From Candidatus Thorarchaeota archaeon (GTDB lineage: Archaea > Asgardarchaeota > Thorarchaeia > Thorarchaeales > Thorarchaeaceae): DNA of 64,000 nucleotides. A program made the position numbers and the translations under genes. Below are positions 44,772 to 55,942 of this stretch, one piece after another. Positions within the stretch are counted from its first letter, which is position 1; each line of letters opens with the position of its first letter. The stretch is taken from assembly GCA_016933575.1 (NCBI GenBank), contig JAFGAR010000146.1, forward strand, positions 50,130-114,129, in the 5' to 3' direction. The notes below the pieces were generated by a model. The model was not told the DNA's origin. It did no database searches and saw only the letters and a list, made by a program, of their open reading frames with translations.

Positions 44772-44809
44772 ATTGTTCCAAAATCAACGCTCACATAGGA
44801 AATTAAATA

Positions 44810-44829
44810 ATGGAGCAAGTATGCTCCAT
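44810..44829. promoter_or_regulatory. Palindrome immediately downstream of a TATA-like box upstream of the aminotransferase
   Basis: ATTAAATA at 44802-44809, then ATGGAGCA-AGTA-TGCTCCAT. Confidence 0.45.
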
Positions 44830-44857
44830 GACCTGTCAATCACTGGACCGTATCAAT

Positions 44858-46204
44858 ATGGATGAAAAACATATCAAGATCCTTAAGGATCTCGGATTTG
44901 ATATCAGTCAAAAAGATCTGACTAATGATTATTGGAAGAAGCGTGCAGCTGAGGCTTTAGCGCTTACTACTCAAGATAGAGACGTGTATGGTTGTCTTGA
45001 TCACACTGTTGGAGAAGGCGTCCGTATCTTTGATATAGAAGGTACGGAATACCTTGATGTCACTGGTGGTGTGGCTGTTCGAGCTCTGGGACTACGATAC
45101 AAGCCGTATCATGATTTTGAAGCAAGTATCAATGATGTAGTCCACGAACTTCCTGGAATGGACTTTGATGCCATTCCTCAGACTCTTCTTGCTGAACGTG
45201 TTGCTGGAATTACCCCGGGAAATCACAAGAAACGAGTTATATTCACAACATCAGGTGGTCGTGCAGTCGAGGGATGCATGAAGTCTGCAATGGATCTTAC
45301 TGGTCGACGACGATTTGTCGCATTTCGACCAGCTTTCCATGGTAGAACTGGCTATGCATTGGCTCTCACATCATCCAACTCAAAGCACAAGTCTGGCTTT
45401 CCACAAGGTGTGGACGTCATTCGTGTCTTCTATCCCTATTGCTATAGATGCCCCTATGGCACGACTGAGGAAGATTGTAGCTTGGAGTGTGTTGAGGCAC
45501 TAAGATATGCCCTTGAGGTTGAGGGGAATGATATCGCTGCAACTGTCATGGAACCACTCTGTGGTGAGGGTGGTCTCATCGTACCTCCCGCAAAAGCAGT
45601 GAAGGGTATCTATGACCTCACGAAGGAAATCGGTGCTTACTTTATGTCTGATGAGGTACAGGCTGGCATGGGTAGGACTGGTAAGTGGTGTGCAATTGAG
45701 AACCATGGTGTTGTTCCAGATTATATCTCAATGGGCAAAGCGATTGGTGGTGGCTATCCAATGGGTGCCTCAATTGGTCCTGCTCCTATGTTCACAGGTG
45801 GTGCTCGCCATTCAGAGACTTTCTCTGCTGAGCCAAAGATGTCTCTGCTCTCCCTTTGGATATTCAAACATCTAGAGGATGGTGAATATCTGAAGAAGAA
45901 TGTGGAGAATGGTGAGTATCTCAAGAAGCGTTTCAACGAATTGAAGGACAAGTATGAGGTCATTGGAGATGTTCGTGGGTTAGGTCTCATGATCGGTATG
46001 GAGATTGTCAAAGACAAGAAGACTAAGGAAAAGGCAAGAAAGCTCAGGGATAGTATTGTGAAGAATGCTGTGCAGAAACAGAAGCTCTGGGTCTTAGGAG
46101 CCGGTCAGAATGTCATCAGATTTACTCCCAGCTATATCATTACAAGAGAGAACATCGATGATGTGACCGATCGTCTTGACAAGGCTATAAGAGAAGAAAT
46201 GTGA
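44858..46204 (+). CDS. Class III PLP-dependent aminotransferase (GABA/ornithine-type)
   Basis: YLD..GG, AFHGRT, EP..GEGG, DEVQAGMGRTG, MGKAIGGG, VRGLGLMIG. Confidence 0.92.
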   Translation: MDEKHIKILKDLGFDISQKDLTNDYWKKRAAEALALTTQDRDVYGCLDHTVGEGVRIFDIEGTEYLDVTGGVAVRALGLRYKPYHDFEASINDVVHELPGMDFDAIPQTLLAERVAGITPGNHKKRVIFTTSGGRAVEGCMKSAMDLTGRRRFVAFRPAFHGRTGYALALTSSNSKHKSGFPQGVDVIRVFYPYCYRCPYGTTEEDCSLECVEALRYALEVEGNDIAATVMEPLCGEGGLIVPPAKAVKGIYDLTKEIGAYFMSDEVQAGMGRTGKWCAIENHGVVPDYISMGKAIGGGYPMGASIGPAPMFTGGARHSETFSAEPKMSLLSLWIFKHLEDGEYLKKNVENGEYLKKRFNELKDKYEVIGDVRGLGLMIGMEIVKDKKTKEKARKLRDSIVKNAVQKQKLWVLGAGQNVIRFTPSYIITRENIDDVTDRLDKAIREEM

Positions 46205-46209
46205 TTTTT

Positions 46210-46260
46210 AAAAAAAGAGAAGATGCTCAACACTTTGCAAGTGCTGAGCACTTATTCTCT
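46210..46260 (-). terminator. Imperfect hairpin plus U-tract between convergent genes
   Basis: TGCTCAACACTT-TGC-AAGTGCTGAGCA stem; the A-run at 46210-46216 gives poly-U on the minus strand. Confidence 0.5.
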
Positions 46261-46588
46261 ATTTGAATAGCAGTAAAATCGCGCCAATGATGACTAGTGC
46301 GCCGCCAAGCCCGCTAGCAAAGAGGTACATGAGAATACCCATAATGAGTATAATCAACCATTTGTTGCTAAACTCCAAGGCTTTGATCTTGATAGTACCA
46401 CTGTTCACTAGTGCAATTAGTGAAAATAGAATTCCAAGAATTCCTGTTATTAGACCACCCAATCCGAAACTCACATAGGGTAGGAAGGCAAGATAAGGTA
46501 ATCCCAATATAGTCAGGATACCTTCAATCAAACCAACAATACCACCGATGAGAATCAATAGGTCTCCAATTTTATTCAGATCTGACAT
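46259..46588 (-). CDS. Small Gly-rich 4-TM membrane protein
   Basis: AGGAG RBS; MSDLNKIGDLLILIGGIV...GALVIIGAILLLFK. Confidence 0.75.
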   Translation of the reverse strand: MSDLNKIGDLLILIGGIVGLIEGILTILGLPYLAFLPYVSFGLGGLITGILGILFSLIALVNSGTIKIKALEFSNKWLIILIMGILMYLFASGLGGALVIIGAILLLFK

Positions 46589-46918
46589 TATTTCAATACT
46601 CTCCTTTTTCTTGAGAAATTGATTCCTAATCAAACCATATATTGGTGCCTTAGAGATGTACGCAATAATTAGATTGTTATCAAGTAATTGCTTCGTGCAT
46701 ATCGCAGGCGTTGTTTATTGGTGGTTGATAAGAATCGTAGAAGACCAACGTTGCGCTTCTATATACATATATCGCAAAAAATGGTTTTCCAACGACGTTT
46801 GCCGTTTTTTATGATTTTAACGTTCTATCCTTTAAACTCAAACTCATGCAGTGGAAACGGCGAGCTTATAATCTCCATTCTTCATTGGTTGGTCAAATAG
46901 TTTGGAGTCTTCTGAATC

Positions 46919-48268
46919 ATGGTGCGTCCGATATCGAATGATACTAGTTCTGATATCCACCAAGAGAATGATGCTCCTCTGGAATTCATTGGTGATATTG
47001 ATTCATCACTTGAGATACCTGATGGTGCTGATATCCTCATTGTCAGTAAGGATCAATCCTATCTGACTCATGGTATTCACAAATTTCCAGCGAAGTTCTT
47101 CCCAGAATTGCCGCGTTATCTAATACAAAGATATTCTGAAGTCAATGATACAATCTTAGACCCTATGTGTGGAAGTGGCACTACTATTCTTGAAGCTGCA
47201 TTGTGTAGAAGGAAAAGTATCGGTATTGATATCGATTCTATTGCTCGTCTTATTACTCACGTTAAGACAACACCTATTGACCCAGCAATCCTTGAGAATA
47301 TAATTACCTCCTTGACCCAACAAATCCAGAAATATTCATTGAGTAGTGAGTATCATCCAGAAATTCCTGTTTTTAATTATCGAGATAATTGGTTCAGGCC
47401 TCATGTTCTGAGCGAACTCTGTATAATCCGGGACTGTATAGAATCACTTCCCGAGGTTCATGATGTCTATTCGGTCCATGAGTGGTCAGACATTCGTGAT
47501 TTTTTTCGGATTGCCATGTCCTCTATAATCCGTGATGTCTCCAATGCTGATCCTCATTGCACAAGAACCGTGCTCCGAAAGAAGGTAATCAAGAAGATAG
47601 ATCCTGGTGATACAATCTCTAAGTTCCTAGTTGCTCTATTCGAACAAGCTAAAGCAATGAAGGATCTATGGTCCGTATACTCCTCGATGAAGAACTGGGA
47701 GGTTTCAATACCTGAAGGAACTGCTACAAACACTGGACTTACTGATGCATCTGTTGATCTTGTTGTTACCTCACCCCCTTACATAAACGCAGTCGACTAT
47801 CCCCGGACACATCAATTAGAGATGTATTGGTTGGGTTTTCTTGGCGATGAATCTCTCTCTACAGTCAAGAGAAAGTACATTGGCACTGAGACCGTCTACA
47901 AGCGGGAATACAGCGAGCTTAGTGTATCCGGTCTAGATTCTCTTGATCCTGTTCTTAAAGAGATCTTTAAACAAGATCCGCGTCGATCATTTATCACGTA
48001 CATGTTCTTCAGAGATATGGAAACCCAGCTTCGAGAAACAATGAGAGTCTTAAAGCCTGGCGGAAGGTATTGTATTGCGATTGGAAGTAATCTCATCAGA
48101 GGAGTTCAAGTCAAGAGCCATGAGATACTCTCCGAGATATCCACAGTAAATGTTGGCTTTGAATTGGAACGAACCTTCTTCTCAAAACTGATTCGTCACT
48201 TTATTCGAATCCCTCGTAAAGAGCGAATGCTTGGTGAATGGATACTGATTCTGAAAAAACCATCTTAA
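46919..48268 (+). CDS. Solitary DNA amino-methyltransferase (N4-cytosine-type motif)
   Basis: HKFPAKF, DPMCGSGTT (SAM binding) before TSPPY (catalytic), RVLKPGG. Confidence 0.85.
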   Translation: MVRPISNDTSSDIHQENDAPLEFIGDIDSSLEIPDGADILIVSKDQSYLTHGIHKFPAKFFPELPRYLIQRYSEVNDTILDPMCGSGTTILEAALCRRKSIGIDIDSIARLITHVKTTPIDPAILENIITSLTQQIQKYSLSSEYHPEIPVFNYRDNWFRPHVLSELCIIRDCIESLPEVHDVYSVHEWSDIRDFFRIAMSSIIRDVSNADPHCTRTVLRKKVIKKIDPGDTISKFLVALFEQAKAMKDLWSVYSSMKNWEVSIPEGTATNTGLTDASVDLVVTSPPYINAVDYPRTHQLEMYWLGFLGDESLSTVKRKYIGTETVYKREYSELSVSGLDSLDPVLKEIFKQDPRRSFITYMFFRDMETQLRETMRVLKPGGRYCIAIGSNLIRGVQVKSHEILSEISTVNVGFELERTFFSKLIRHFIRIPRKERMLGEWILILKKPS

Positions 48269-48338
48269 GCACTGCAATGCCAAGGCTTATCAGTGGATAC
48301 GCTCCACCAACGCAAAAACAAATGGAGGTAAAAAACAC

Positions 48339-48597
48339 ATGGCAATAATCTATAGGTGGGATCACGTTTGCCAGACGCTCGTTTCTATCACTACCTCCTT
48401 CTGCGAAATTCCTCTACGTGCTTCTTAAGAGTAGGCGCCGGATGACCAGGCAAGACTTGATAAGCACAACATATCTGCCTCCCAGAACAGTCAATTATGG
48501 CCTTAGTCGGCTTAAGGCATTAGGACTTATCAGAGAAGCAGAGCATCACGAGGATGCGCGGGAGCGGGTCTACGAGCTAGTTCAGGCGCCAATGTGA
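48339..48597 (+). pseudogene. Frameshifted winged-helix (MarR-like, LPPSAK-type) regulator, not in the ORF track
   Basis: GGAGGT RBS and ATG at 48339 in one frame; the +1 frame (48349-48597) reads SIGGITFARRSFLSLPPSAKFLYVLLKSRRRMTRQDLISTTYLPPRTVNYGLSRLKALGLIREAEHHEDARERVYELVQAPM*. Confidence 0.75.
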
Positions 48598-48754
48598 TTT
48601 CAAGGACTCAAACAACCTTCAGACACAAGTGAATGCATATACCAAGATTTGAATCTGGTCACTATCAAGGTAAAGAGTTATATCAATTCCAGCATGATGT
48701 CCTTTGTCTTCACCATAGAGTGAAGATAATCGTGAAAAATATTGGAGGAATTGA

Positions 48755-49183
48755 ATGACGTACCAGATTCCACTAGAGCTTATCGTAGATGATATTCCGA
48801 TAAACTCTGTTGTGGGCAGAAATAAAAAGGAAAACCGGACAGCTGCAGCCGCAGCACCGCTTTTGCTTCTAATGCTACCATTTGCAGTTGGATTCCTTTG
48901 GTATGGTATAGGTGTTATGGGACCGACTATGTCCGTAATGCCATCAACAGGAATTGCGCCAAGTAGTGGTGAGTTCATAGTATTTGTCGCTGTATATGGT
49001 CGCTTACCTAACATTCAGGATTGGATAGCAATACTGGTAGCTGCTGGAATAGCGCCGTTCATTGCAATAGGAATGGCCTGGGCCTTGGTCAAACTAGGTA
49101 TCATAGGCATGGCTGTGCTTGAAGGATTCCTTAGTGCAACAGGTATAGGCATAGCTGTAGCGGCAGCAATTGTAGCCGCGTAA
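48755..49183 (+). CDS. Putative circular-bacteriocin-like precursor peptide
   Basis: GGAGG RBS; leader with a basic patch and hydrophobic helix; about 69-aa Ala/Gly/Ile-rich C-terminal part ending IVAA; followed by M48 and SpoIIM genes. Confidence 0.6.
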   Translation: MTYQIPLELIVDDIPINSVVGRNKKENRTAAAAAPLLLLMLPFAVGFLWYGIGVMGPTMSVMPSTGIAPSSGEFIVFVAVYGRLPNIQDWIAILVAAGIAPFIAIGMAWALVKLGIIGMAVLEGFLSATGIGIAVAAAIVAA

Positions 49184-49201
49184 GAACAGTTCAATTTCGA
49201 C

Positions 49202-49220
49202 GGGGCGTTTTTTAAGCCCC
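49202..49220 (+). terminator. Short hairpin between precursor and processing genes
   Basis: GGGGC-GTTTTTTAA-GCCCC, 18 nt after the precursor stop. Confidence 0.4.
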
Positions 49221-49261
49221 TCCCTCCAAAGTACAAGATATGTGAGAATGGATGAAAAAAA

Positions 49262-50326
49262 ATGTCAAATTTTGAACTTGTAAAAAATGGGCTCAGTATT
49301 ACTAGTCGTCGTCAACGCTTTTTCCTATCAGTGGTTTCTATTGGTGCAGGAGCTATCCTAATTCCTCTCTCTTACATATGGATTATCCAGCCGCTTGAAA
49401 TAGGACTAATAGCGCCGCTATTTACTTTCAGTATTTTGGTGTTGATTCAACTTAGTGTCATAAAAGCAAATCATACACTTGAAATTGAAACAAGGGCTGT
49501 TGACGCGAGTTTTGGTGAGTTTCTTCGTTTTTCATTTCCTAATGTAATCTTCTACAATCTATTGTTTCTTTCAGTATCTATCGTGGTTGTATTAATTGAC
49601 AACATAAGCGAAAATATACTATTACTCGGAATTGGAGGCAATGCCCTCATTATCTCTTTACTTGCTCTAATGATCAACTGGCCTGGAGGCACTCTTTTAC
49701 CAATCCAAGGGTTTCGAGAATTGGATCCAGAGAAATATCCTAAAATTATGAGTGTCCTTGAACGATCAAATCTTGAGATTCATTTGATTGGATTTCTTCC
49801 ACTCAGAAAAATAAAAGTCATCAATGCATATCAATGGGGATCTAAGAAGAATGCTGTGATAGCTATTTCGGACTACCTTGAACAGATTTTGACTGAGGAA
49901 GAAATTGCTGCAGTGGTTGCCCATGAACTAGGACATATCAAGAATCACCATTTTTCCAAGATGATTATTACTCTCTCAATCTCGCCATTGATTCTAATCA
50001 ATTTCTATTGCTTGTATTCTATTTTTGACATCTATCAGTACTTGAATGAAGTACAGATGTTGTTACTCTTAGCAATTCTTGGATTTCTTGCATTAGGTGT
50101 TCCACTAACAGTAATACCATGGATATCTAGGCGGCGGGAAGTGCAAGCAGACGAATACGCTGCTTGTCTGGTGGGCAGAGAGATTATTGCATCAGCACTC
50201 AGAAAACTAGTAGATAATGAGGTAGTGTTTTGGGATGTTGACAAACGAATTGAATTTCTTCTTAGTCATCCTAGTATTAGCAAACGTGTAACCACAATAG
50301 AATATTCTGATTCTGGGGAAAAGTAG
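49262..50326 (+). CDS. M48 (HtpX/Ste24-like) membrane zinc metalloprotease with extra N-terminal TM helices
   Basis: INAY, EEIAAVVAHELGH, REVQADEYA, SHPS...RV. Confidence 0.9.
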   Translation: MSNFELVKNGLSITSRRQRFFLSVVSIGAGAILIPLSYIWIIQPLEIGLIAPLFTFSILVLIQLSVIKANHTLEIETRAVDASFGEFLRFSFPNVIFYNLLFLSVSIVVVLIDNISENILLLGIGGNALIISLLALMINWPGGTLLPIQGFRELDPEKYPKIMSVLERSNLEIHLIGFLPLRKIKVINAYQWGSKKNAVIAISDYLEQILTEEEIAAVVAHELGHIKNHHFSKMIITLSISPLILINFYCLYSIFDIYQYLNEVQMLLLLAILGFLALGVPLTVIPWISRRREVQADEYAACLVGREIIASALRKLVDNEVVFWDVDKRIEFLLSHPSISKRVTTIEYSDSGEK

Positions 50327-50328
50327 AG

Positions 50329-51456
50329 ATGACTCGGAAAAAACCACAAAAAACTCCAAGGCATACAAGTATCGTTGAAACATCCGATTCAACTGAACTC
50401 TCAGTTGAAGCAGCATCTCCCGGAACAAGATTTGTAGCTGGAATGATCGATTTCTTGATAGTGGTGTGCTGCTCTACCCTAATTGCAGCATTACTGAGTA
50501 TAAACCCAATTTTCTTTCAAATTGCCATATTCTATTTTCTTGATGTCGGTGGGATTCTGACACTTCTACTAAGCGCTACAGGTCTTCTAGGTATGCTTTT
50601 TCTATTCTTTTTCTCCTTTGTTTATTTCACTCTAGAGGGTATTTTTGGTCTATCTGTTGGCAAGTATTTCTTCAGTCTCAGGATTGCAGGCGAACGGAAA
50701 TGGGAAAATATACTACTCAGATCATTTATCAAATCAATACCGCCTGTTAGTCTAATTGACTTTCTCTTTGTATTCAAGAAATTGAAGTACACTCAGCGAT
50801 ATTCCGATTCTTTTCTCGCGCTCGGTATTGCCAAACTAAAATTCGAATCTAAAAAATCGAAGCTTTTTCTAAATGCGGAAGATACACCATATATTGTATC
50901 TGGGTTTATCATGTTCTTTCTACCACTGATTGTTTACGTTTTATACAACACATTATTTTCACAATTACCTCCCGCAATCTTACCTCCAGATCCTGAATCT
51001 GCCTTTCCATATTCTCCCAGTATCTCTTTCTTACTACAGATTTTCATTAATAATTTCTATCTTGCTTATACTTACTATGTATTTGGAGGATTGCTTCTTA
51101 GTTTTCCAATGACCATGCAAGTTTTCTTTCAGGGCTTTACAAGCGGCATGATGATATCAGGTATTCTCATGTCATATCCCTCTTTCCTATTGTTTGGCAT
51201 CATTCCTCACCTTCTCTTTGAGGGTCTTGGATTTGCATTTCTTATCGCTACTGGTTTGATTCTGACAGAGACTCTGATGGATTTGTTCTCTCGATACAGA
51301 AAAGGCAAGAGTCTTAGCTCAAACAGATCATTCTTAGGAACCCAACTGATTCGAGTTATCAAGCTCTTCTTAGTAGGTGTGTTGATACTTTTCATAGGTT
51401 CTTTAATTGAGGTCTACATTACTCCCTACATTTTACTCAATTTCTATTTCTATTGA
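50329..51456 (+). CDS. RDD domain fused to a SpoIIM/DUF95 membrane domain
   Basis: RDD: RFVAGMID, G.SVGKYFF.LRI, LLRS, QR..D. SpoIIM: IFINN, GIIPHLLFE, SLIEVYITP. Confidence 0.85.
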   Translation: MTRKKPQKTPRHTSIVETSDSTELSVEAASPGTRFVAGMIDFLIVVCCSTLIAALLSINPIFFQIAIFYFLDVGGILTLLLSATGLLGMLFLFFFSFVYFTLEGIFGLSVGKYFFSLRIAGERKWENILLRSFIKSIPPVSLIDFLFVFKKLKYTQRYSDSFLALGIAKLKFESKKSKLFLNAEDTPYIVSGFIMFFLPLIVYVLYNTLFSQLPPAILPPDPESAFPYSPSISFLLQIFINNFYLAYTYYVFGGLLLSFPMTMQVFFQGFTSGMMISGILMSYPSFLLFGIIPHLLFEGLGFAFLIATGLILTETLMDLFSRYRKGKSLSSNRSFLGTQLIRVIKLFLVGVLILFIGSLIEVYITPYILLNFYFY

Positions 51457-51527
51457 AATTTATGATTTCCAAAAGCCTCATAATGGACACGCCCCCGAAT
51501 CAATTCAATCTAATTGAGGAATTTGAG

Positions 51528-52886
51528 ATGGACTATTACAAATCCGCTGGCGTTGAACCAATTGGAAATGATCAACGTACACATTACAGTAACCAAGTGA
51601 CCAAAGATATCATTGGAAAAGACATCGTACTTATCGGTTGGACACACATATTACGAGATAAGGGTAAAATAAAATTCCTAATTCTCAGGGATGAACATGG
51701 TACAGTCCAGATTGCAATCCCTCAAGCTAAAGTGCCAGAGGATGTTTTTGAAACATCAGCACAGCTAAAACCTGAAACAGCAATTGCTGTGCATGGGAAA
51801 GTTGTAGCAACAAATCAACTTCCTTCTGGAGCTGAAGTTCTTCCAACTAAGATTCGTATTCTAAATACTGCAGAACGGCTCCCAATCGATATTGTGGAGG
51901 GGAAGGTAGACATTGAACTTGACACCCGCCTCAATTATAGAGTTCTCGACCTTCGAAAACCGTCAATTAATGCCATCTTCAGGATTCAACACAATCTTGT
52001 CAGATTTGCCAGAGAATATCTTGAGAAGAATGACTTTGTCGAGATACACACTCCAAAGATAGTAGCCGCTGCAACAGAGGGCGGCGCAAACCTGTTTGAA
52101 GTTCAGTACTTTGAGAAGAAGGCATACCTTGCACAGAGTCCTCAATTCTACAAGCAACTTATGCTCTTGGCTGGATTTGGCCGTGTCTTCGAGATTGCTC
52201 CTGTATTTCGAGCAGAGAAACACAATACTAGGCGCCACGTCAATGAGTACACCTCTTTTGATTTTGAGATGGCTTGGATCAGTGGTGTCGAGGATGTTAT
52301 GAGGATGGAAGAGCGTATGTTGAACCACTCGTTCAAGAAGACAAAGGAAGTGGCTGCATCAGAGCTAGAACTTCTTGGCATAGACCTCGTGGTTCCTAAG
52401 GTCCCATTCAAGAGAATCAAGTATGTAGAAGCCATTGATCTCTTGAACAATGCTGGTAAAGACTTGAAAATCAATGATGACCTTGACCCCGAAAGTGAAC
52501 AGATTCTAGGTCAAATCTTTCCCGAGAAGTTTGGAACTGATATGGTCTTTATTACTCACTATCCCCTAGAACTTAGACCCGCTTATACCATGCCCAGCAT
52601 GACCGATGAAGGAATGACTGAGAGTTTCGATCTCACCTATAAAGGAATGGAGATTACAACTGGCAGTCAACGAATTCACCTCTACGATTTACTTGTTGAG
52701 CGATTCAAAGCAAAAGGCTTCAACCCTGAGGACTTCACGTTCTATCTTGATCCTTTCAAGTATGGTGCGCCTCCTCATGGTGGACTTGGTCTTGGTGTTG
52801 AACGACTGACAATGCAGATTCTTGGCATAGACAATATCCGTGAGGCAACATTGCTACCACGAGATAGAGACCGCTTAACACCCTAG
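51528..52886 (+). CDS. aspS: Aspartyl-tRNA synthetase (archaeal type)
   Basis: OB domain GW...RD.G...F..LRD, TRLNYRVLDLR, LAQSPQFYKQ, FRAE, GAPPHGG.GLG.ER, PRD..RL.P; start at ATG 51528. Confidence 0.95.
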   Translation: MDYYKSAGVEPIGNDQRTHYSNQVTKDIIGKDIVLIGWTHILRDKGKIKFLILRDEHGTVQIAIPQAKVPEDVFETSAQLKPETAIAVHGKVVATNQLPSGAEVLPTKIRILNTAERLPIDIVEGKVDIELDTRLNYRVLDLRKPSINAIFRIQHNLVRFAREYLEKNDFVEIHTPKIVAAATEGGANLFEVQYFEKKAYLAQSPQFYKQLMLLAGFGRVFEIAPVFRAEKHNTRRHVNEYTSFDFEMAWISGVEDVMRMEERMLNHSFKKTKEVAASELELLGIDLVVPKVPFKRIKYVEAIDLLNNAGKDLKINDDLDPESEQILGQIFPEKFGTDMVFITHYPLELRPAYTMPSMTDEGMTESFDLTYKGMEITTGSQRIHLYDLLVERFKAKGFNPEDFTFYLDPFKYGAPPHGGLGLGVERLTMQILGIDNIREATLLPRDRDRLTP

Positions 52887-52982
52887 TCTTGACTGGATAA
52901 TACTCTCTCTTAAAGCACCAATAGTAGAGGTTGTTTTGTCAGCTTAGTGCAGACTATCAGTATATAGAAGGAACTATCCATC

Positions 52983-53741
52983 ATGCAGGAGCGACTTGAA
53001 ACAGAACTCTATGCATCTATTGCAACCCTTGATCAATTGAAAAAGATGTTTGACCTTGGTGCTATTGACAATAGGTCATTCCAGAGAGAATCTCAGGCAC
53101 TTCTCCAAGAAGTACATCATCATATTGATAGTCTAAAACGTGTGGGTCTGGATATTAGCAAATTCATTACTGGTGAACAGATTACCGAAGCTTTTCCCGA
53201 TGCCGCTGACTTGCTTAGACTACGAGAATACCCTTCTGTACGATCGCTTCATGGAATGTCTTCAGATCAATATTATGACTATATTGGACTAGCTATTCTA
53301 GATGTTGCCACAGAACATGCATCTAAGGGTCTCATGGGTCTTGCTGAGTTAATTGTTGAAGTTGTAAGGTGTTTACCTGAATTAAAGACAGTAACTTACA
53401 ACGATGTTATTGAGGCGGTGAACCGAGTTGCTGAACATGGTCTTCTTCCAGGCATTCGAACACTTCGTGGCGGGGTGAAGGTTGTTGAGCTAAGGCCTCT
53501 GGAGCTACGTCGTGATCAAGCAGATGTTGTAAATCTTGCCGCCTCACGTGGGCATATCTCTGTTGAAGAAGTAATGATGCAACTGAAATGGTCCGAGGAC
53601 CACGCAAGACAGGTCTTAGCAAGCCTTGTTGAAACTGGCATGGCTGTTGCAGACATTCGTTTCTCAACTGGTGGAAGGTACTACTTCCCTGGTCTTCGTT
53701 CAAGAGATACCGCTGAGCCTCATGGTACTGGTCCATACTAA
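52983..53741 (+). CDS. ESCRT-II Vps22/Vps36-like (EAP30) tandem winged-helix protein with N-terminal Vps28-like helical hairpin
   Basis: YY..IG..I, GL..L.EL, D...A, P.EL..D...V..LA...G..S......L.W...A...L..L...G....D, YYFP match EAP30. Confidence 0.85.
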   Translation: MQERLETELYASIATLDQLKKMFDLGAIDNRSFQRESQALLQEVHHHIDSLKRVGLDISKFITGEQITEAFPDAADLLRLREYPSVRSLHGMSSDQYYDYIGLAILDVATEHASKGLMGLAELIVEVVRCLPELKTVTYNDVIEAVNRVAEHGLLPGIRTLRGGVKVVELRPLELRRDQADVVNLAASRGHISVEEVMMQLKWSEDHARQVLASLVETGMAVADIRFSTGGRYYFPGLRSRDTAEPHGTGPY

Positions 53742-54466
53742 GTAACTACGATAATTGCACCCCTCTTCTTATCAACCCACTCGGCAAATCCCTTCTCTAC
53801 CATGAGTGCCAAGACAATATAGAGGTCCTTTTCTGGTAATTTAGCAAAACTCTCCTCTGATTCTTGGATCACTATTGATTTCACATCAAGTCTTAGTTTG
53901 CCATGCTTCAATGCCCACTCATACAAGTAATCTGCCCAATCCTCTAGAGGTCTCCAGTAGACTCTTAGTTGCCTCTTTCGTTTGTCCATCCATTCGGCTA
54001 CTTCTTTGTCGATAAGAATCTGTACTATTATCTTAAAGGAATCTACCTTGTTTCTAAGATCCTTGAATGGTGGCTCACTGATGAATACAGACAATGAGAG
54101 AATATGGACATCATTATGTTCTGCCCATTGAAGTATGAAGTCCGCCCACTCTTCTGCCCAGAGGATCTTATCCTCCTCCCTTGAGGGTATGCCATACATC
54201 CACTCGCTCTCGATTGGTCCTCCCCAGGAGGGCATCAAAATCTCAAATTCCGTTGTCACTTCTTGAAGAGTTTCCTCAACTACTTGAGGTTCGGAGCTTT
54301 GGATATCTCTTGTTTCAGTAGTTTCTTTTTTTTCTACAATGACTTCTGGAGAGTGGGTCTGTTCCATAGTAGTTACCTTCTCAGGTACATCCACAGACTC
54401 TGTTTCTAGTGGTTCCTGAGAGACCTCTTTTTTTGACTTCTCTCTCCTCTTCTCTTTCATTCCCAC
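53738..54466 (-). CDS. ESCRT-II Vps25-like protein with acidic N-terminal extension
   Basis: W...IL.W, AEW.DK.K....V.WR..E.WA..LY.W match Vps25. Confidence 0.85.
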   Translation of the reverse strand: MGMKEKRREKSKKEVSQEPLETESVDVPEKVTTMEQTHSPEVIVEKKETTETRDIQSSEPQVVEETLQEVTTEFEILMPSWGGPIESEWMYGIPSREEDKILWAEEWADFILQWAEHNDVHILSLSVFISEPPFKDLRNKVDSFKIIVQILIDKEVAEWMDKRKRQLRVYWRPLEDWADYLYEWALKHGKLRLDVKSIVIQESEESFAKLPEKDLYIVLALMVEKGFAEWVDKKRGAIIVVT

Positions 54467-54469
54467 TCT

Positions 54470-55699
54470 TTAGGAACCCTCCGCCCAGTCAATGTATCTT
54501 CTGACATCCTCTGGGGGAGTAGCAGGTCTGATATTCTCAATAGCACTCAAGAAGTCATCCCTTGACACAGGTCGGATGTCTAAAATCTCTCTCTCATCAT
54601 CCATTCTTCCAGAACGCTGCAGGTCTCTTATTGGTTCCATAGATGCCTCTCTACAGACGATACTGATATCTCTCCCACTGTACCCCTCTGTGAGATCTGC
54701 AAGTTCTTCATAATCGACAGCTGGCGAGACCTCAATCTCTTCCATATGTATTTCCAGTATTGCCGCTCGTGCGGCTTTATCTGGTAACGGTACATGTAAT
54801 TTCTTCTCGAATCTAGACCTGAGTGCAAAGTCAATCTCCCATGGAAGATTCGTTGCTCCAATCACTGTCACTCTCTCATTCTGATTACTAGCAAGTCCTT
54901 GAAGTTCAGTGAGCAACTGTGTCTTCATTCGTCTCTCCCCGCCAACATCATCCCCAGAACGTGATACACCTATAGAGTCTAGTTCGTCGATGAATATGAT
55001 TGCTGGCTGATTCTTTCGTGCAAGTTCAAAGAGATGCATGACGAGACGCTCAGACTCACCAAGCCATTTACTTACAATATTAGCTGCTGACACATTGAAA
55101 AATGTGGCATTCACTTCGGATGCAACAGCTTTGGCGATAAGGGTCTTTCCACAACCAGCTGGACCATAAAACAGGATTCCTCTCCATGGCTGTCTTGCTT
55201 TTCCTTTGAATAACTCTGGATGTTTCATTGGTGTAATAATAGCATCACTGATTGCCTGTTTTGCATCCTGTAGACCAGCAACTTCTGACATCTTGATATT
55301 TGGCCGTTCAGAGATGATAGTATCTGATATCATTTCTCGGAGACGTTTTGTATCTTCATCAACATCTTGGTCCACAGATGTTTTTTGTCCAACTGAAACT
55401 GATTCTGCAGGACCAAAATCCGCCTTGGGTGGTTCTGTAAGACCATCTATTGGTCCTGCAGTCTTCTTTTTAATTCCTGAGAGAAATCTCACTCGATCTA
55501 CGCATTCCTGTGCTCGGTCGAAGTAATGTTTTCTGATTGATGGCAGCGATGCCGAATTTGACAATTTGATCAGAATCTTACTTGCCTTAAGGTAGAGCTG
55601 ACAAGCCTCGTTCTTAATCCCTCTCTGATCAAGTTCAATTGCTCTATCAAGTAGGCTCTTGAGGCCTCTATCCAACCGGTCATTATCTGATCCAGCCAT
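54470..55699 (-). CDS. vps4: Vps4 AAA+ ATPase (MIT + AAA)
   Basis: MIT: RAIELD..G...EA..LY..A; ERPN.K...VAGL..AK, PWRGIL.YGP.GCGKT, SKWLGESE, FIDE, GATN.PW. Confidence 0.95.
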   Translation of the reverse strand: MAGSDNDRLDRGLKSLLDRAIELDQRGIKNEACQLYLKASKILIKLSNSASLPSIRKHYFDRAQECVDRVRFLSGIKKKTAGPIDGLTEPPKADFGPAESVSVGQKTSVDQDVDEDTKRLREMISDTIISERPNIKMSEVAGLQDAKQAISDAIITPMKHPELFKGKARQPWRGILFYGPAGCGKTLIAKAVASEVNATFFNVSAANIVSKWLGESERLVMHLFELARKNQPAIIFIDELDSIGVSRSGDDVGGERRMKTQLLTELQGLASNQNERVTVIGATNLPWEIDFALRSRFEKKLHVPLPDKAARAAILEIHMEEIEVSPAVDYEELADLTEGYSGRDISIVCREASMEPIRDLQRSGRMDDEREILDIRPVSRDDFLSAIENIRPATPPEDVRRYIDWAEGS

Positions 55700-55942
55700 G
55701 CGAGTTCATGTCTACACAACCCGTAGGATGTTAAGACTTTCTGTGCTGATTATCGCATGATACATTTAGCGCCTTCTTGAGAGAATATTTGTGAAGGAAT
55801 TGGTAGATACAAAATAAACTGTCAAATTTGGATATAAATCAGATAACAATTGATACTACCTATGCTGACCAATACTAGTTGTGGACCTCTCTGCCTTCAT
55901 AACAGAAGGAAGCACATCACCAGAATCTGGTCCAGAAAAAGG

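Follow-up and report, generated by a model that had tools for sequence, protein, structure and literature searches.

An accessory membrane gene cassette in a Thorarchaeota genome joins a new small hydrophobic protein family to an RDD-SpoIIM fusion

A small hydrophobic protein family and its partner genes

We analysed a stretch of 64,000 nucleotides from contig JAFGAR010000146.1 of a Candidatus Thorarchaeota archaeon (the window, whose positions are used throughout; the host genome is labelled G000) and found that it carries a real, co-inherited accessory membrane module. The module comprises the genes for a hydrophobic protein of 142 amino acids (p142), an M48 zinc metalloprotease, and a protein in which an RDD domain is fused to a SpoIIM/DUF95 domain. 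p142 and the RDD-SpoIIM fusion are an obligate pair and form the core of the module, with the M48 protease as a frequent third member. An earlier reading of the bare DNA, here called the first-pass annotation, had proposed a circular-bacteriocin-type cluster at this place; maturation of p142 into a peptide, possibly a cyclised one, is also our leading reading, and a tentative one.

The p142 gene (48755-49183, + strand) is the founder of a new small hydrophobic protein family, and its product had no match among the Pfam and NCBIfam profiles. A word-indexed search with p142 returned zero relatives, and an exhaustive phmmer search of 1.84 billion representatives returned 8 (141-172 aa, 30-55% identity) together with one fragment. 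These homologues are free of stop codons, keep a length of 141-172 aa and stand in other gene contexts, which confirms that the 142-aa open reading frame (ORF) is a real gene, as had been proposed. Pattern scans with the p142 and fusion alignments found no further relatives in 185,579 GTDB species genomes, and no relatives among viral contigs.

Gene context was readable for seven distinct loci, G000 included. In G000 the order is p142, M48, fusion. The same order was found at L013-15, in a Thorarchaeota metagenome-assembled genome (MAG) with unrelated flanks, where the three proteins are 55, 48 and 50% identical to those of G000, and at L017/18/26/27, where the small protein has 141 aa. At L028/29 the gene for a 172-aa homologue is followed by the fusion and then by M48 (L029), with an HTH_5 gene upstream in L029 and no gene called in the 1.4 kb upstream in L028. 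At L032/33 a 147-aa homologue is encoded divergently from M48 and the fusion, which lie on the other strand. L030/31 holds a 155-aa homologue and the fusion, with no M48 within about 3 kb, and in L034 a 150-aa homologue and the fusion are followed by the contig end. A full-length homologue of the RDD-SpoIIM fusion (345-375 aa, alignment A3) thus stands beside the p142 homologue in 7/7 contexts, and M48 is adjacent in 5/7, in three gene orders or orientations and with unrelated flanks. The first-pass annotation had named SpoIIM/M48 pairs without a precursor-like neighbour as the observation that would speak against it; the small ORF was found with SpoIIM in all seven contexts and with M48 in five, and the proposal withstood this check. 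Identities of the three genes covary; across 21 pairs, which are not independent of each other, those of p142 and of the fusion correlate with r = 0.77.

That the small ORF is not a gene at all, or is adjacent to its partners by accident, is very improbable. p142 is known from DNA alone, and two metatranscriptome runs of the same study had no contigs on the stretch, which has no bearing on expression either way. However, eight stop-free, length-conserved homologues, always beside the same fusion gene and with varied flanks and gene orders, effectively refute such an accident.

The fusion protein (375 aa; 50329-51456, + strand) consists of an RDD domain at residues 29-149 and a SpoIIM/DUF95 domain at residues 229-366. 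The three profile searches that the first-pass annotation had suggested were run. PF01944 (SpoIIM) scored 46.2 bits (cut-off 26.9, E = 6e-12), PF06271 (RDD) scored 24.1 bits, which is exactly its gathering cut-off of 24.1, and PF01435 (M48) scored 90.9 bits for the neighbouring protease. R34 and D41 of the RDD domain are invariant in the alignment; among the homologues, the RDD match is weak in L013, L017 and L028 and carries no such mark in L032/L033. A P-H-x-x-x-E motif at residues 293-298 is conserved in 6/7 fusions. The fusion profile had no match in the PDB at E 1.

SpoIIM domains as such are common in this archaeal family. PF01944 was found in 66/86 of its genomes (23/23 of the high-quality ones), nearly always inside an open frame of about 900-950 aa. 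In G000 this presumed housekeeping SpoIIM lies at the end of such a frame (C38:19615-19932, L035), with homologues in 65 other family genomes. The special feature here is an extra, rare, fused SpoIIM paralogue: among 400 Asgard reference genomes, the full-length RDD-SpoIIM fusion occurred in one, G000.

A second accessory SpoIIM module was observed in the same archaeal family, at L038:984-2636 (G350) and L039:1021-2663 (G348). There, a hydrophobic ORF of 117-127 aa, with no Pfam match and a hydrophobic C-terminus, precedes a short SpoIIM protein of 180-201 aa and a Yip1 protein (PF04893, 8e-10), and G347 and G366 (L046, L047) hold SpoIIM and Yip1 only. An hhalign comparison found nothing to relate the p142 family to the ORF that accompanies the short SpoIIM of G348. 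A YIP1 protein also occurs in the bacterial cerecyclin cluster (PMC8534725).

The third gene (49262-50326, + strand) encodes a Ste24/HtpX-like M48 zinc metalloprotease. Besides the PF01435 score (cut-off 20.3, E = 1.1e-25), both the HExxH motif and the downstream Glu zinc ligand are present: six membrane helices are predicted, HELGH lies at residues 221-225, and a downstream E-x-Q-A-D follows whose E293 aligns to Ste24p. The best solved relative is yeast Ste24p (4il3, 1.1e-7), with residues 185-350 aligned. All NCBIfam HtpX cut-offs were missed, the best score being 60.4 bits against an equivalog cut-off of 341, so the protein is an M48 member and not an HtpX orthologue. Its subfamily is sharply set apart, with members at E <= 1e-53 and then a gap to Ste24-like proteins at 1e-13, and has so far been seen only on archaeal, mostly Asgard-like contigs. 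In the subfamily tree, M48 copies linked to the other two genes are both basal (L028, L033) and nested among lone copies. At L020:74-4009 the contig ends at the gene of a close M48 homologue (60% identity), which directly follows genes for an ATP-binding cassette (ABC) ATPase, an ABC-2 permease and a membrane-anchored protein of 166 aa; in no other context does a gene of this subfamily directly follow ABC transporter genes in the same orientation.

Insertion of the cassette beside aspS

To delimit the module, the region 44800-55700 was compared with 27 same-genus genomes. The aminotransferase, methylase and winged helix-turn-helix (wHTH) genes (the last at 48277-48595) and the sequence from aspS onward (from about 51468) were matched in 27/27, and no match to the DNA between wHTH and aspS was found in any of the 27. 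DNA homology with these relatives stops at 48596-48610 and restarts at 51460-51468. In the four relatives measured, the distance from the wHTH stop codon to a conserved element upstream of aspS is 53-72 bp, with a different hairpin, and neither p142 nor the fusion had a match in protein searches of 40 relatives. About 48611-51460 (+ strand) is therefore an insertion of 2.85 kb specific to G000, with boundaries placed to about 10 bp, and it contains three genes, for p142, M48 and the fusion. No terminal direct or inverted repeats above chance were found at its ends. A second assembly of the source sample, built from the same underlying data, covers 47800-52300 with zero differences; thus a fault of a single assembler does not account for the junctions.

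The cassette is a horizontally acquired accessory module. The left flank of L017 is syntenic with another G000 contig (proteins 75-84% identical) and the synteny ends before the cassette, which places the module at different sites in related genomes. In the same contig, about 400 bp at L017:2750-3200, between the S8e and AIRS genes, match four places on G000 contig C64 with 74-78% identity; this stretch is a dispersed repeat or a small mobile element.

The wider neighbourhood agrees with the first-pass annotation in several respects. Four ORFs in the same orientation lie between an N6/N4 DNA methylase gene (46919-48268), which was described as a methyltransferase, and aspS, and the ORFs of p142, M48 and RDD-SpoIIM were all confirmed. 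ESCRT-II and Vps4-like genes downstream of the cassette support the Asgard origin that had been suggested, and the MAGs that hold the nearest homologues of the cassette genes are named Candidatus Thorarchaeota by their sources.

The fourth ORF, wHTH, had been counted as a member of the block. It is an ORF at 48418-48597 (+ strand, frame open from 48349) with weak matches to MarR_2/HTH_24 (E 2e-4 to 4e-3, under the Pfam cut-offs). Since it adjoins aspS in 27/27 genus relatives that lack the other three genes, it is not part of the unit, and a role as cluster regulator was rejected on the same ground. The wHTH of G000 does not resemble the HTH_5 gene that precedes the cassette in L029. The start of the block, given as 48339, also needs correction: the ATG there is well placed, with GGAGG upstream, but it is in another frame than the wHTH domain. 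A stop codon lies at 48346-48348, and in the frame of the domain there is no ATG, GTG or TTG upstream of the GTG at 48418. Four same-genus relatives that were translated (L004, L005, L007, L009) have the same out-of-frame layout, for which reason a recent, strain-specific frameshift was rejected; L005 and L009 have an in-frame ATG where G000 has ACG (48364-48366). These sequences point to a non-canonical start, or else to a short protein, and not to a frameshift of recent date.

On the right, aspS is listed from a TTG at 51453 that shares bases with the fusion gene's stop codon. A short element at about 51466-51485, upstream of aspS, is conserved in DNA among relatives and promoter-like, with features resembling a B recognition element and a TATA box (BRE/TATA-like). 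An ATG with GAGG upstream lies at 51528, so aspS probably starts there; in that case the cassette would have landed just upstream of an intact aspS promoter. On the other side of the methylase gene, a small Gly/Ile/Leu-rich membrane protein (46259-46633, - strand) is a language-model look-alike of archaeal DUF6114 clusters (0.77-0.80); it served here as a control.

A hairpin had also been reported after the small gene, and its standing is mixed. The stem-loop at 49202-49220 (+ strand), 19 nt 3' of the p142 stop codon, has a 5-bp G/C stem (GGGGC and GCCCC) and a 9-nt loop with a T6 run, and it is weak in the window, with a minimum free energy of -15.7 kcal/mol, a z-score of -1.0 and no call in a terminator scan. 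Its recurrence stood up better: the other three loci that were folded carry a stem-loop 13-20 nt after the small-gene stop, with stems of 12 bp (L013), 7 bp (L017) and 6 bp (L028), so that a stem-loop is present in 4/4 loci with an intergenic spacer, the one of G000 being the weakest.

Possible maturation of p142

All insertions and deletions of the p142 family fall in an N-terminal part of 72-103 aa, which consists of a variable polar head, a conserved NKxxNRxA motif, one hydrophobic helix of 27 residues, and a loop rich in Pro, Ser and Gly; in p142 itself, residues 1-73 are predicted to form a cytoplasmic head with the NKxxNRxA motif, one membrane helix and the loop. The loop ends in (S/T/G)(G/S)(Q/E/N/M)↓(F/L/Y) in all full-length members. 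In p142 this is the conserved junction motif A-P-S-S-G-E↓F-I at residues 67-75 (48953-48979, + strand), where the arrow marks a putative processing site, E73/F74. Counted from the F/L/Y up to the stop codon, 7/8 members have exactly 69 residues and one has 72. The division into a 73-aa leader and a 69-aa core gains support from this alignment, in which the C-terminal part has a fixed length of 69 aa and a motif at its start. The 69-aa module has a net charge of -4 to +4 and a grand average of hydropathy (GRAVY) of 1.0-1.75, its invariant residues include Gly and Pro at predicted helix breaks, and it terminates in an uncharged hydrophobic helix. P2 is G or S, and the penultimate residue is A or G, in all 8 members.

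Several of these features are familiar from circular bacteriocins. PF01944 proteins are the class-defining partner of circular bacteriocin precursors (PMC13289728, PMC5695211), so the view of DUF95/SpoIIM as the hallmark of such clusters is borne out, and M48 genes do occur in some predicted clusters, namely in two bacterial ones (PMC8659200). Circular bacteriocin precursors have no C-terminal extension (PMC13289728, PMC13463998), their ligation site lies inside a hydrophobic helix, and long-leader precursors have a small residue at P2 and again at the last but one position of the core (PMC13463998). Which enzyme takes off the leader and seals the ring has yet to be established (PMC8659200, PMC13463998), and DUF95 has been proposed for both leader cleavage and ligation (PMC13463998).

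If p142 is a precursor, its N-terminal part, with cytoplasmic head and membrane helix, would anchor it N-in, and the 69-aa C-terminal module would be displayed at the outer face of the membrane, as predicted by hydropathy and the positive-inside rule. The P-H-x-x-x-E motif of the SpoIIM domain is likewise predicted near the outer face. The SpoIIM domain may then cut at the (G/S)(Q/E)↓(F/L/Y) junction and would probably join residue 74 to residue 142, as has been proposed for bacterial DUF95. The first-pass annotation had given removal of the leader to M48. This is doubtful, since the same hydropathy and positive-inside considerations put the catalytic domain of M48 in the cytoplasm and the proposed cleavage site outside; because both the junction and the P-H-x-x-x-E motif are predicted to lie outside, SpoIIM is favoured as the junction enzyme. 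M48 may instead trim or clear the leftover membrane-anchored leader, the primary cut being left to SpoIIM. The mature peptide would have 69 residues, be helical, very hydrophobic and almost without charge, and act in membranes, either for competition or as a permanent part of the membrane; the extreme hydrophobicity and near-zero charge of the core make it unlikely to be a freely secreted toxin. The membrane-anchored leader could make an ABC exporter unnecessary. The fullest form of this proposal, a minimal self-exporting circular-peptide system in Asgard archaea in which RDD-SpoIIM cuts and ligates, the Ste24-like M48 recycles the leader and no ABC transporter takes part, appears to us conceivable but doubtful.

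Structure prediction and profile comparison gave leads of limited reach. Circular bacteriocins are compact, saposin-like bundles of 4-5 helices. The AlphaFold 2 model of residues 74-142 has five short helices, with a mean predicted local distance difference test score (pLDDT) of 74.8 and a predicted template modelling score (pTM) of 0.60, and the model of whole p142 (pLDDT 52.4) was too poor to use. The p142 family profile had no match to PDB sequences at E 10, and Foldseek with the 69-aa model found nothing in the PDB at E <= 0.001. With the same model, a wide VIA-align search reached a Z of 5.8 at best, no more than the noise level of helical bundles, and listed no bacteriocin; an atlas shape search gave generic small helical bundles only. 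These fold searches do not count against a bacteriocin-like fold. When residues 74-142 were compared by language-model features, the three named clusters closest to them were all of circular bacteriocins (PF09221 twice, PF16942; 0.80-0.81), which is a lead only, and a control with a hydrophobic 69-aa piece of a neighbouring gene returned its own family and no bacteriocin. The predicted complex of the fusion with p142 received a score of 0.07 and a mark of 0.32, which speaks neither for nor against binding.

Several observations weigh against maturation and cyclisation of p142. An ATP-binding or transporter gene is present in all known clusters (PMC8534725, PMC8659200), but none was found within about 6 kb, or up to the contig end, in 7/7 contexts, window positions 45000-55000 included. 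For a small immunity gene there is no candidate either, as the insertion holds three genes only and no extra small gene is common to the seven contexts; the lack of both genes had already been remarked at this locus and holds in all seven. None of the 9 family members matched PF09221, PF12173 or PF16942/TIGR03651 at E <= 10, and when three core-family hidden Markov models were run against the G000 genome the cassette locus stayed unmatched at E <= 10. The putative leader, of 72-103 aa and with a membrane helix, falls outside the 2-48 aa of known leaders (PMC8534725). The GRAVY and near-zero net charge of the core fit ordinary membrane helices equally, and the language-model scores are under the 0.9 level for more than a lead. 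SpoIIM (arCOG01994) is an ancient family present in nearly all archaea, for which roles in membrane remodelling have been proposed and no link to peptides is described (PMC5898192), so that the presence of SpoIIM alone is not diagnostic. M48 copies also stand alone, at L016 (64% identity), L019, L021, L022 (whose contig ends 0.4 kb past M48) and L024, with no p142-like ORF in any of these contexts, and at L030 the p142-fusion pair does without M48. Finally, the topology calls come solely from hydropathy and the positive-inside rule.

Much of this would be expected if p142 is an unprocessed four-helix membrane protein in a stable complex with RDD-SpoIIM, forming a niche-specific membrane-remodelling, transport or envelope module in which M48 serves as a quality-control protease of the Ste24/HtpX type and no peptide is released or cyclised. 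This is a serious possibility. The remodelling roles proposed for near-universal SpoIIM, the housekeeping copy in nearly every family genome, the occurrence of M48 homologues alone, the lack of an exporter or immunity gene and of similarity to known bacteriocins all agree with it. So does p142 itself, which is extremely hydrophobic with uncharged stretches of 23-30 residues; an uncharged hydrophobic tail such as that of the 69-aa module occurs in 3% of G000 ORFs of at least 120 aa and in about 9% of the membrane-like ones. However, such a rare module at different sites would be unusual for a housekeeping-type complex. The 54 residues from 89 to 142 contain no polar turn in several members, and the Gly/Pro residues at the breaks between short helices are invariant. 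The fixed 69-aa module that runs to the stop codon, and the conserved motif at its start, would also be left unexplained.

The accessory and mobile nature of the module and its position in variable regions also recall membrane conflict systems (abortive infection, defence or toxin-antitoxin). p142 would then be a pore-forming pro-protein that M48, SpoIIM or both activate or neutralise on a trigger, without cyclisation. Some lone M48 copies lie near TnpB or ParE/antitoxin genes. The halocin C8 precursor, which yields both a toxin and its immunity protein, is an archaeal precedent for such a single pro-protein. Archaeal DUF95 loci (arCOG01996) in dark-matter islands have been proposed as membrane-associated defence or secretory systems (PMC4158269). 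Against this stands that no sensor, nuclease, ATPase or recognised defence component was adjacent in any context (the PADLOC library was not scanned), and that the strict 69-aa module and fixed C-terminus are not accounted for. We consider a conflict system of this kind improbable, and peptide maturation of p142 is retained as the leading, tentative reading.

Significance and comparison with known systems

The logic of a precursor next to a DUF95 protein is already known. What is new is the precursor family, the obligate RDD-SpoIIM fusion, the lack of a transporter, the Ste24-like subfamily, the Asgard host and the fact that the cassette demonstrably moves. Since archaeal DUF95 loci were flagged earlier (PMC4158269), to call it the first of its kind in archaea would go too far. 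DUF95/SpoIIM is the chief candidate for the missing enzyme of leader removal and ring closure. In the cassette, a precursor-like family pairs one-to-one with a SpoIIM fusion, without a transporter and with no more than one protease, which makes a compact test bed of two or three genes. If the self-exporting circular-peptide reading is true, this would be the simplest system for testing DUF95 as leader peptidase and cyclase, and the range of ring-closed ribosomal peptides would come to include the archaea most closely related to eukaryotes. Should the peptide reading prove wrong, a new and strictly co-inherited membrane protein pair is still described. The cassette also provides a first functional handle on accessory archaeal SpoIIM paralogues and on the Ste24-like protease subfamily of archaeal contigs, and shows that small cassettes of membrane genes pass from one Asgard genome to another.

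Among known systems, the archaeal SpoIIM/DUF95 loci (arCOG01994/arCOG01996; PMC5898192, PMC4158269) likewise have PF01944 clustered with variable membrane proteins in variable regions, and a membrane-associated conflict or remodelling role has been proposed for them. Unlike the cassette, they involve arCOG02177, SalXY-like ABC transporters or restriction-modification genes, and no RDD fusion, M48 protease or p142-type partner is described for any of them (PMC5898192, PMC4158269).

Turning to the protease, the cassette M48 has in common with Ste24p/ZMPSTE24 (M48A) and HtpX (M48B) the HExxH motif with downstream Glu and multiple membrane helices. With Ste24p, however, the catalytic half alone aligns (residues 185-350), and the cassette M48 belongs to a separate subfamily. 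Ste24 matures yeast a-factor, which is a secreted peptide; the p142 family has no CAAX motif.

The closest known systems are the circular bacteriocins, especially those of the hydrophobic, low-charge subgroup ii (gassericin A, acidocin B, plantacyclin) and the long-leader ones (AS-48, pumicyclin A). Unlike their clusters, the cassette has no ATP-binding or ABC transporter gene, no large membrane protein of the CirB/As-48B type and no immunity gene; its SpoIIM is fused to RDD, its host is an Asgard archaeon, and p142 matches no known core family in sequence or fold. The p142 core is also more hydrophobic than known circular bacteriocins appear to be. The likenesses concern the arrangement and the putative core. 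As in circular bacteriocin loci, a small precursor-like gene lies directly beside a PF01944 membrane protein, in a cassette that is accessory and mobile. The putative core of 69 aa falls among the known lengths of 58-70 aa and is predicted to form five short helices; it has no C-terminal extension, both of its ends are hydrophobic and helical, and the residues at P2 and at the penultimate position are small, as they are in long-leader circular bacteriocins.

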